Both the position numbers and the translations under genes were made by a program. Shown one piece after another: positions 26,937 through 28,879 of a stretch of 64,000 bases of DNA (position 1 is the first letter of the stretch; the number at the start of each line of letters is the position of its first letter). A model generated the notes under the pieces. The model ran no database searches and was not told where the DNA came from. It worked only from the letters and a program-made list of their open reading frames with translations. The stretch is from Actinomycetota bacterium (GTDB lineage: Bacteria; Actinomycetota; Acidimicrobiia; Acidimicrobiales; JAJPHE01), in NCBI GenBank assembly GCA_021325435.1, contig JAJPHE010000124.1, positions 3,921 through 67,920 of the forward strand, read 5' to 3'.

Positions 26937-28064
26937 CTACAGGTTCCCCCGGCGGGCCTGGGCCCGCTCGATGGCCTCGAACAGCGCCTTGAAGTTGCCG
27001 GCACCGAAGCCGGTGGCCCCTTCGCGCTGGATCACCTCGAAGAAGACGGTGGGGCGGTCGGTGACGTTCTCGGTGAACAGCTGGAGCAGGTAGCCGTCGT
27101 CGTCGCGGTCGACGAGGACGCCGAGGCGCATCAGGTCATCCCACGGGAGGTCGTAGCCTTCCATGCGCATCCGGGCGTCTTCGTAGTAGGCGGGCGGCAC
27201 CTCGAGGAACCGCACCCCTCTGGTGCGCATGGCTGACACCGCCGACACAATGTCGTCGGTTCGAAAGGCGATGTGCTGCACCCCCGGGCCGCGGTAGTAC
27301 TCGAGGAACTCGTCGATCTGGCTTTTGCGCCTGCCCTCCGCCGGCTCGTTGAGTGGCAGGACCACCTTGGAGCCGTCCCACACCACCGTCGACATGAGAG
27401 CGGAGTATTCGGTGGATATCTGGTCGTCACCGAAATGCACCAGCTGCTCGAAGCCGAGGACCTCCTTGTAGAACGCGACCCAACCGTCGAGGGCGCCCCG
27501 CTCGACATTGCCCACGCAGTGGTCCATGGCACGCAGGCCGACCGGTGCGCCCACCGGAGAGGGTGAGGCGGCGGGCTGGTAGCCGGGCAGGAATAGGCCG
27601 CGGTAGTCGCTGCGCTGGACCAGGCGGTGGACCGTGTCCCCGTAGGTGGCGAGGTCGGCCTGGATCACCGTCCCCTCTTCGTCGGACTCGCGCCAGGGCA
27701 ACCGCACGGGGGAAGCACCCCGTTCGACGGCGGCGCTGAAGGCGGCGTCGGCATCAAGGGCCCTGATGGCCAGGCGGGCCACGCCGTCGCCGTGACGAAG
27801 CACGTGCAGAGCGATGGGGGACTCTGGTTGAAGGGCGCCGGTGACCACGAGGCGGACCTCGCCCTGGGTCATGAGGTATGACACCGACTGGCGCCGGCCG
27901 GTCTCGGGGCCGGCGTAGGCGGTGAAGTCGAACCCGAACCCCGAAGCCAGCCAGCCGGCGAAGGCCCGGGCGTTTCCGACCCAGAACTCAATGTGGTCCC
28001 ACCCGAGAAACTGGGCGGCCGGGGTGGCGGGCGGCGGCTGGGAACGGAGGGAGAGCGTCGTCAC
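26937..28064 (-). CDS. hppD: 4-hydroxyphenylpyruvate dioxygenase (or closely related HPPD-family enzyme)
   Basis: Trimmed from ORF 26937..28184 to GTG 28064 (GTGA overlap with the upstream stop). WDHIEFWVGNARAFAGW near the N-terminus, VQHIAF, and the C-terminal FFEVIQREGATGFGAGNFKALFEAIE hallmark. Confidence 0.85.
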   Translation of the reverse strand: MTTLSLRSQPPPATPAAQFLGWDHIEFWVGNARAFAGWLASGFGFDFTAYAGPETGRRQSVSYLMTQGEVRLVVTGALQPESPIALHVLRHGDGVARLAIRALDADAAFSAAVERGASPVRLPWRESDEEGTVIQADLATYGDTVHRLVQRSDYRGLFLPGYQPAASPSPVGAPVGLRAMDHCVGNVERGALDGWVAFYKEVLGFEQLVHFGDDQISTEYSALMSTVVWDGSKVVLPLNEPAEGRRKSQIDEFLEYYRGPGVQHIAFRTDDIVSAVSAMRTRGVRFLEVPPAYYEDARMRMEGYDLPWDDLMRLGVLVDRDDDGYLLQLFTENVTDRPTVFFEVIQREGATGFGAGNFKALFEAIERAQARRGNL

Positions 28065-28879
28065 GCCGCCGGCCTCCGCTGGGTTCGATCGGCGTCCATC
28101 CCGTCCCAGAAGGCCTTGACCCCGTCGAGCATCTCCGCCGCCCCCCTTAGGAAGCGATCGGCACTGAAGCCGGGCGCCTTCCATGCCTCGGCCAGCTCAT
28201 CGGCGGTGTGGGCGGCGTGCTGGTCCTCGACCTTGTCGTGCCACACCCAGAAACCCAGATGCAGTTGGGGGCACTCGCGGTCCTTGAACGCTCGCAGGCC
28301 GGCGATCAGCTCCTTCCAGAAGCCGGCGGCCGCCCAGTGCTCGACGGCGTAGGAGGCGCCCTCGGCGGTGGATGGGTCGTCGGAACCGTAGATGCGAAGG
28401 AGCTCGTCGCAGAAGAAGCGGGTGGCGGCGGTGGCGTGGCGGCGCTTGCCCAGATCGGCGAATCCGAGCCCCAGGGGCTGGGCGAAGCGCACCAGCCACT
28501 CGAAGTGGGCTGCGGGGTGCCGGTAGACGCTGCCGTCGACCGACCCGTTGGTCGAGACCAGTTGCGGGTCGACCTCGGGGTCGGGCGCCGCCCCCCGCTC
28601 GGAGCGGAACACCACCCCGAGCTCGTTCATCAGGATCTCCTTGCCGGCCCGGTAGGACTCGATGTCGGCGGCGTTGATCACCTTGCGCAGCTGGGCGATG
28701 ACGAACTGATGGCTGAACACCGAGAACTGGACCGTCAGGTGGGCCACGTCGTGGCGGGTGGCCCGCCCCTCGGCGAACCAGCGGGTGTAACGGTTGTCGG
28801 AGACGACCGGGTGGTCCCCCACCAGGCGGTCCGCCTCCATCCGGAACTGCGCCAGCCCCCCGGCTGCGGTGACGACCAT
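28061..28879 (-). CDS. Heme-oxygenase-fold (TenA/PqqC/CADD, 'iron-containing redox enzyme') family protein
   Basis: Trimmed from ORF 28061..28942 to ATG 28879, preceded by AAGGGGGGAG. All-helical. Pattern NRYTRWFAEGRATRHDV..LTVQFSVFSHQF, ILMNELG, HFEWLVRF, SYAVEHW, and WHDKVEDQHAAH (HxxxExxH). Confidence 0.6.
   Translation of the reverse strand: MVVTAAGGLAQFRMEADRLVGDHPVVSDNRYTRWFAEGRATRHDVAHLTVQFSVFSHQFVIAQLRKVINAADIESYRAGKEILMNELGVVFRSERGAAPDPEVDPQLVSTNGSVDGSVYRHPAAHFEWLVRFAQPLGLGFADLGKRRHATAATRFFCDELLRIYGSDDPSTAEGASYAVEHWAAAGFWKELIAGLRAFKDRECPQLHLGFWVWHDKVEDQHAAHTADELAEAWKAPGFSADRFLRGAAEMLDGVKAFWDGMDADRTQRRPAA

Follow-up and report, generated by a model that had tools for sequence, protein, structure and literature searches.

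The class of heme-oxygenase-like di-iron oxidases (HDOs), enzymes that activate O2, is growing fast. To our knowledge, all characterized members, including the 4-aminobenzoate synthase CADD (CT610) of Chlamydia trachomatis and the 4-chloro-allylglycine synthase BesC, either take part in the biosynthesis of natural products or cofactors or protect against stress. The defining feature of the class is a motif of three histidines and three carboxylates, 3His/3carboxylate or 3H/3C (PMC13108848). A 2026 review of HDOs links no member to hppD, the gene of 4-hydroxyphenylpyruvate dioxygenase (HppD), or to central catabolism (PMC13108848), and our literature search found no paper connecting HDOs or diiron enzymes with hppD, homogentisate or phenylalanine hydroxylase. 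Here we analyze a stretch of 64,000 nucleotides from an Acidimicrobiales genome (assembly GCA_021325435.1, contig JAJPHE010000124.1; hereafter the window), in which a gene encoding an HDO-like protein directly precedes hppD. The recurrence of this arrangement in several phyla suggests an unrecognized O2-dependent step in the breakdown of phenylalanine and tyrosine, and the protein is very probably a catalytic di-metal HDO whose function is linked with the homogentisate pathway.

The HDO-like protein encoded ahead of hppD

As read from the sequence, the reading frame of the HDO-like gene extends from an ATG at 28879-28877 of the minus strand to a TGA at 28063-28061, and the start signals of hppD are located within its 3' end:

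28061..28879, minus strand: HDO-like gene, 272 codons, first gene of the operon, with the 3His/3carboxylate ligand set
28883..28892, minus strand: purine-rich, Shine-Dalgarno-like element AAGGGGGGAG, 3 nt 5' of the ATG of the HDO-like gene, read from the sequence
28061..28064, minus strand: GTGA overlap of the stop codon of the HDO-like gene with the GTG start of hppD (28064-28062, in the hppD frame)
28073..28077, minus strand: hppD Shine-Dalgarno sequence GGAGG, within the 3' end of the HDO-like gene and 8 nt before the GTG
26937..28064, minus strand: hppD, 4-hydroxyphenylpyruvate dioxygenase, 375 aa, matching TIGR01263 and 1T47

An earlier note, made from the letters of the window, had described an open reading frame (ORF) of 272 codons with a strong ribosome-binding site and a stop codon overlapping the hppD GTG. 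The public gene calls of the same contig agree, giving the same 272-aa and 375-aa products with the same 4-nt overlap. The HDO-like protein is 100% identical to a public entry from an Acidimicrobiales metagenome-assembled genome (MAG) that is named 'hypothetical protein' (P0001). The product of the downstream gene scores 414 bits against TIGR01263 (cutoff 277) and matches the HPPD of Streptomyces avermitilis, 1T47, with E=2e-114; by these matches it is a canonical HppD.

Searches with the query alone yield no match in NCBIfam or among PDB sequences, and none in Pfam even at E<=1; assignment to a family hence required a family profile and a structure model. The AlphaFold2 model, built from 42 homologues (pLDDT 84, pTM 0.82), contains ten helices and one low-confidence loop at residues 91-122 that includes a small hairpin; the description of the protein as all-helical holds in essence. 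In a Foldseek search of the PDB, the top match is CtCADD/CT610 (E=4e-6; TM 0.66 normalized to the query and 0.82 to the target), followed by PqqC (E about 1e-4), BesC, HrmI and UndA. Foldseek probabilities of 1.00 and TM values of 0.6-0.8 were obtained for CADD, BesC, HrmI, UndA, FlcD and PolF. TenA homologues are found further down, below the HDOs, and the top 50 matches contain no true heme oxygenase. The ranking accords with the heme-oxygenase-like fold of HDO type proposed in the earlier note and not with thiaminase-type proteins as the best homologues.

Profile searches point the same way. A 33-member family profile retrieves from the PDB BesC (7e-5), the CADD-type 4-aminobenzoate synthase 9PJ4 (4e-4) and the CADD-like 3B5O. 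The Pfam family PF14518 (Haem_oxygenas_2) matches 13 of 33 distant relatives at E<=1, with the best E=3.5e-6, while the query itself is below the gathering threshold, without a match even at E<=1, and has no NCBIfam match that would place it in the 'iron-containing redox enzyme family'.

All sequence motifs listed in the earlier note (ILMNELG, HPAAHFEW, YAVEHW and WHDKVEDQHAAH) are present in the translation. To place them on a known metal site, the family profile was aligned by hhalign with that of CT610/CADD, whose sequence is 100% identical to 1rcw_A (91.7% probability, E=7.6e-7). In this profile-profile alignment, six conserved residues fall in exact register with the CADD ligands:

28622..28624, minus strand: codon of E86, predicted ligand corresponding to CADD E81 (hhalign)
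28505..28507, minus strand: codon of H125, predicted ligand corresponding to CADD H88 (hhalign)
28340..28342, minus strand: codon of E180, predicted bridging carboxylate corresponding to CADD E142 (hhalign)
28217..28240, minus strand: codons of H214-x3-E218-x2-H221, predicted HxxxExxH triad corresponding to CADD H174, D178 and H181 (hhalign)
28508..28618, minus strand: family-specific loop of 37 residues (88-124) between E86 and H125, of low model confidence

The HxxxExxH motif noticed earlier is therefore the ligand triad of the alignment with CADD, and among the Glu and His residues then listed as candidate ligands, E86, H125, E180, H214, E218 and H221 are retained. Two others, H121 and H181, do not align with ligand positions; the former is variable in the alignments and the latter is replaced by Asn in many homologues. 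The six-ligand set (EHEHEH) is complete in all 42 close homologues, in all 87 homologues from genome loci, and in 25 of 33 distant relatives. E127 and H224 are likewise invariant in the hppD-linked clade, and the loop 88-124 holds a conserved (S/T)xEG(T/S)VDG motif and an acidic residue, D/E115.

With a predicted heme-oxygenase-like helical bundle and, by alignment, a 3 His/3 carboxylate motif on its core helices, the protein is predicted to bind two metal ions (Fe/Fe or Fe/Mn). On grounds of sequence and predicted structure it is a member of a new, uncharacterized HDO clade that has a distinctive loop insertion and a new physiological setting, and this clade probably has a new reaction.

Some of the exceptions to the six-ligand set (P0176, P0177) constitute a ligand-less subfamily. 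Since these paralogues are not located beside hppD, the ligands appear to matter for the hppD link. Members of this gammaproteobacterial subfamily (P0176, L091 8001-8870; P0177, L092 8001-8807) have lost most of the six ligands. Their genes are flanked by a ComEC-like gene and by genes of the methylcitrate cycle, and in L091 a flavodoxin-like gene is located upstream. The subfamily may be a non-catalytic offshoot.

Genomic association with homogentisate catabolism

The family comprises at least 4,455 homologue clusters at 90% identity, the top 120 of which are 69-77% identical to the query. The database entries that we met are called 'hypothetical protein', apart from a few with the automatic names 'PqqC' or 'iron-containing redox enzyme'; a few JGI records are named 'PQQ biosynthesis protein C'. 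For neighborhood analysis, one genome per species was scanned and the best 80 of at least 424 relatives were taken, with homologues 55-76% identical to the query. Neighbors were counted by tblastn and ORF clustering, and as ORF calling in these high-GC loci is crude, the counts are approximate to within a few loci. The 80 loci are labeled as Acidimicrobiia/Actinomycetota, Chloroflexota, Dormibacterota, Planctomycetota, Acidobacteriota, 'Ca. Angelobacter', Latescibacterota, Krumholzibacteriia, Gemmatimonas and Fibrobacter. The presence of homologues in so many clusters and in 80 genomes of several phyla identifies the ORF as a real gene and not a chance product of high GC content.

The co-occurrence with hppD that the earlier note had proposed to look for in other genomes is widespread. 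The HDO gene is located directly 5' of hppD on the same strand in approximately 68 of 80 loci (Actinomycetota, Chloroflexota, Dormibacterota and 'Ca. Angelobacter'), and in 49 of these 68 its stop codon may overlap an in-frame hppD ATG or GTG (ATGA/GTGA). A divergent Lrp/AsnC regulator is found in 62/80 loci, a short cupin resembling homogentisate 1,2-dioxygenase (HGO) in about 50/80, and a gene of the FAA-hydrolase family in 20/80. When compared with the proteins of the window, the HDO homologue is more conserved than HppD in all 67 genomes compared, with mean identities of 66.9% and 59.7%, respectively, and 53% for the HGO-like protein.

The gene order varies between lineages. In Dormibacterota and Chloroflexota, the operon reads HDO-hppD-HGO-aminotransferase-FAH-DinB; in one locus (L066) the aminotransferase gene is inserted between the HDO gene and hppD; in a Planctomycetota MAG (L052) the HDO gene comes last, in the order Lrp-hppD-HGO-FAH-HDO; and in two loci (L046, L079) it is divergent from hppD, an arrangement met in an Acidobacteriota MAG. 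Alkalimarinus coralli, a cultured gammaproteobacterium, has a 44%-identical homologue (WP_250655680.1) convergent with an hppD-HGO-FAH-GST operon, and a 34%-identical subfamily member (L094) is found in the arrangement HGO-FAH-x-HDO, without a full-length hppD. The HDO gene is thus co-located with hppD, HGO and FAH genes in unrelated lineages and in varied orders. As the link with hppD outlasts gene rearrangement across phyla, it speaks for an association in function rather than for synteny by descent. The neighborhoods of two further homologues (P0273, P0231) consist of housekeeping genes and are uninformative. In loci of the Latescibacterota type that lack hppD, a 300-aa ORF without a Pfam match is divergently located upstream of the HDO gene (L069 4902-5804, minus strand).

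Around the HDO-hppD pair, the window contains the following genes:

25825..26934, minus strand: HGO-like cupin, short form, 369 aa, with HgmA_N/HgmA_C
24609..25805, minus strand: Cys/Met-metabolism pyridoxal-phosphate (PLP) enzyme, methionine gamma-lyase-like, 398 aa, 20 nt past the HGO-like gene
23705..24589, minus strand: arylamine N-acetyltransferase, 294 aa, PF00797, 20 nt past the PLP gene and last on the strand
29000..29476, plus strand: divergent Lrp/AsnC-family regulator (Pfam)

The HGO-like cupin scores just 91 bits against TIGR01015 (cutoff 510) and matches human HGO with E=1e-16, the metal-binding positions HRN..E..H being aligned. Short HGO proteins of about 370 aa are also encoded at L081 10979-12106 and L094 1972-3087, so that this form accompanies the HDO-like gene from Actinomycetota to Gammaproteobacteria. 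The PLP enzyme and the N-acetyltransferase were considered as parts of the system and rejected, as both are absent from the 80 genome loci and are lineage-specific. Cys_Met_Meta_PP genes occur within 2-3 kb of HDO homologues at L083 11230-12540, at L094 7563-8999, and in the window at 24609-25805; recurrence in these three unrelated loci, of approximately 94 examined, is at about chance level. An arylamine acetylase beside a CADD-like protein is a curious neighbor that appears to be lineage-specific.

The divergent intergenic region between the Lrp/AsnC and HDO genes is 120 nt long and contains a single repeat, the 8-nt direct repeat ACAATCTG, whose two copies (28898-28905 and 28962-28969) are 64 nt apart; they could be half-sites of the regulator or a chance occurrence. 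A scan of positions 23200-29200 found no promoter or terminator. On the Lrp side, a PRAI (trpF-like) gene is located at 30718-31380 of the window, and a class II DAHP synthase gene adjoins the Lrp-HDO-hppD unit in nine Acidimicrobiales loci (L001, L002, L005, L022-L025, L027 and L036). The proximity of aromatic amino acid biosynthesis genes to a catabolic unit may be mere lineage synteny.

A 50%-identical homologue (P0123; L083 8001-9176) has a cytochrome b5 domain at its N terminus, in which the HPGG motif is intact; its gene is surrounded by MIOX, Asp/Arg hydroxylase, trypsin and TIL-domain genes. In A. coralli (CP096016.1), a 79-aa zf-CDGSH [2Fe-2S] protein is encoded 60 nt 3' of the HDO homologue and in the same orientation (L081 8988-9227), a pairing seen in this genome and one near-identical metagenome contig only; it is possible that this protein is a dedicated electron donor of the A. 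coralli homologue. The b5 fusion and the CDGSH neighbor hint, independently of each other, at an external supply of electrons. Real-domain fusions among the long homologues are limited to the cytochrome b5 protein and a 36%-identical relative fused to an N-terminal SAM methyltransferase domain (P0158). HDO-HppD fusions were sought, and the extra parts of the other long hits (P0124, P0126, P0127, P0130, P0141, P0167), which contain no Pfam domain, are probably frame errors.

Proposed reaction and rival explanations

Candidates for the aminotransferase, HppD, HGO, FAH and an isomerase (GST or DinB) share operons with the HDO gene. Given this co-occurrence, the HDO-like protein does not replace any of the canonical steps from tyrosine onward, and the substrates suggested in the earlier note, i.e., tyrosine, 4-hydroxyphenylpyruvate (4-HPP), homogentisate or a related aromatic, can be narrowed to those of an extra step. 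Such a step, of which hydroxylation of a compound derived from phenylalanine would be an example, is more likely than one of the canonical tyrosine, 4-HPP or homogentisate reactions. In the neighborhoods examined, ring hydroxylation of phenylalanine is the only canonical step of phenylalanine and tyrosine catabolism that was never met in the HDO clusters.

In the mechanism that we propose, O2 would be activated at a dinuclear Fe/Fe or Fe/Mn cofactor that receives its electrons from a small carrier, and the aromatic substrate so oxidized would enter or pass through the HppD/HGO route. The reaction itself is a guess: it may be a para- or ring-hydroxylation of a phenylalanine-derived compound, with conversions of phenylalanine to tyrosine, phenylpyruvate to 4-HPP, or 2-hydroxyphenylacetate to homogentisate as candidates, and the protein might then be a pterin-independent functional analogue of phenylalanine hydroxylase. 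2-Hydroxyphenylacetate is a side product formed by HppD from phenylpyruvate. Conversion of either phenylpyruvate or 2-hydroxyphenylacetate would make the protein a direct metabolic neighbor of HppD, which fits the translational coupling. We regard a ring hydroxylase of a phenylalanine-derived substrate as a tentative assignment. The fuller version, a pterin-independent di-iron aromatic ring hydroxylase that acts on phenylalanine, phenylpyruvate or 2-hydroxyphenylacetate and is produced in a fixed ratio with HppD, possibly in a complex with it, is similarly conceivable and on balance doubtful. Several observations weigh against the mechanism and the reaction proposed. Coupling to HppD suits consecutive reactions or a complex better than it suits the conversion of phenylalanine to tyrosine, as an aminotransferase step lies between; the cytochrome b5 fusion and the CDGSH neighbor are single cases; in six loci (labeled as Latescibacterota, Krumholzibacteriia, Gemmatimonas and Fibrobacter) there is no hppD within 6 kb; and none of the HDOs known so far hydroxylates the arene ring of a free substrate (PMC13108848).

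The same coupling would be at home in an amino-acid oxidation of the BesC/AetD/HrmI type, in which tyrosine (or phenylalanine) would be converted to the 2-imino or 2-oxo acid and 4-HPP handed to HppD, as an O2-dependent alternative to transamination. Most characterized HDOs do use amino acids, with substrates ligating Fe1 (PMC13108848), BesC is the best sequence-profile match, tight translational coupling fits consecutive steps, and a gene of the RidA/L-PSP imine deaminase family adjoins the cluster in seven Dormibacterota loci. This last neighborhood is limited to one lineage, however, and the activity would be redundant with class I/II aminotransferases encoded in the operon or adjacent to it (Dormibacterota/Chloroflexota, L066, L085), so that we consider such an oxidation unlikely. 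A role outside the pathway, as a partner or protector of HppD held at a fixed ratio, seems improbable as well: the protein would scavenge O2, H2O2 or quinone-derived oxidants from homogentisate autoxidation, or supply or repair Fe(II). The conserved 4-nt overlap and the conservation above that of HppD are as expected for an interacting partner, electron carriers would also serve a reductive scavenger, the cofactors of HDOs are known to be labile (PMC13108848), and the HDO-like DtpC, co-transcribed with the catalase gene katE (PMC13232832), offers a precedent. Nevertheless, HppD works in most organisms without a partner of this kind, the long homologues include no HDO-HppD fusion, and in some genomes the HDO gene is located apart from hppD, elsewhere in the operon, or with no hppD nearby. 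Action at or after homogentisate, be it as an alternative hydroxylase that forms homogentisate from hydroxyphenylacetates independently of HppD or in the processing of an HGO or HppD by-product, would suit the relative that accompanies HGO and FAH without a full-length hppD in L094 and the gene that follows FAH in L052. Still, the dominant and most conserved order places the gene directly 5' of hppD and coupled to it, and candidates for HGO, FAH and the isomerase are already there, which leaves this explanation with a slim chance.

Two identities suggested by the structural matches fare worse. A self-sacrificial p-aminobenzoate (pABA) synthase of the CADD/NePabS type is highly improbable: CADD is the top structural match, Y31 aligns with its sacrificial Tyr27, and an arylamine N-acetyltransferase is encoded in the operon of the window, whereas the position of the amine donor Lys152 in CADD is taken by L191, a residue that is Leu or Ile in 87/87 homologues, the two proteins are no more than about 16-19% identical, none of the 80 other loci has the N-acetyltransferase gene, and the conserved context is homogentisate catabolism and not folate. 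With the Tyr kept and the Lys152 equivalent lost, we do not count the protein among the pABA synthases. A metal-free PqqC/TenA-type protein (a cofactorless oxidase or a thiaminase-like hydrolase) or a true heme oxygenase is scarcely credible. PqqC is the second-best structural match, TenA ranks lower, and the few JGI names refer to PqqC, yet the six HDO ligands are invariant and the neighborhoods contain no pqq or thiamin genes, which sets the protein apart from PqqC. Assignment to TenA/thiaminase II (TENA_THI-4, PF03070) was rejected, as the query has no match to this Pfam family and TenA structures rank below HDOs, and so was a true heme oxygenase, absent from the top structural matches as described above.

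Taken as a whole, a di-metal HDO clade acting in catabolism of phenylalanine and tyrosine to homogentisate, with the hydroxylase proposal included, is the best explanation that we can offer, though it stops somewhat short of being probable. A large, multi-phylum clade that is invisible to Pfam and NCBIfam would thereby be tied to a well-studied catabolic pathway in which it is more conserved than HppD. If the protein is catalytic, soil bacteria that are abundant (Acidimicrobiia, Dormibacterota and Chloroflexota) use the textbook route from phenylalanine and tyrosine to homogentisate with an enzymatic step or variant that has gone unrecognized, and HDO chemistry is extended to a new type of reaction and to a physiological setting new to the class. 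If it is a ring hydroxylase, no HDO before it would have had a role in central catabolism or hydroxylated the arene ring of a free substrate, and many uncultured soil phyla would have a new entry of phenylalanine into the homogentisate pathway. The system is tractable, with a small soluble protein, cheap candidate substrates and a cultured carrier, A. coralli.

Comparison with characterized enzymes

Structurally, the closest known system is CADD (1RCW, 8VAG), together with the NePabS-type enzyme 9PJ4. All six 3H/3C ligands align, the spacing of ligands 2-6 is near-identical, and Tyr27 of CADD corresponds to Y31. The differences are equally clear: besides the low identity and the replacement of Lys152 by Leu, the loop that joins the first Glu to the first His is 37 residues long, compared with 6 in CADD, the genomic context is homogentisate and not folate metabolism, and homologues have electron-carrier partners.

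BesC (7TWA), the best PDB match by sequence profile, shares the aligned columns of the His, the Glu and the HxxxExxH motif, the alignment spanning the C-terminal two-thirds only. Like other HDOs it consumes O2, and its substrate is a free amino acid; this amino acid is aliphatic, however, and the pathway is one of natural-product synthesis. The diiron HDOs UndA, HrmI, AetD, PolF and SznF have in common with the HDO-like protein the helical bundle and the 3H/3C (or 3H/4C) motif. Their reactions (decarboxylation, N-oxygenation, nitrile or azetidine formation) belong to secondary metabolism, and none of them is associated with hppD or with an operon of central catabolism. PqqC (1OTW) has the same fold and is metal-free, whereas the family described here has six invariant predicted ligands and no pqq context.

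Outside natural-product biosynthesis, DtpC of Acinetobacter baumannii (PMC13232832) is HDO-like and depends on the ligand residues for its function; its operon partner is the catalase katE, not hppD. Finally, the pterin-dependent phenylalanine 4-hydroxylase PhhA, with its mononuclear Fe, is unrelated in fold and cofactor; only the role proposed for the HDO-like protein, a ring hydroxylation dependent on O2 and a reductant that would give phenylalanine access to the homogentisate pathway, would be analogous.

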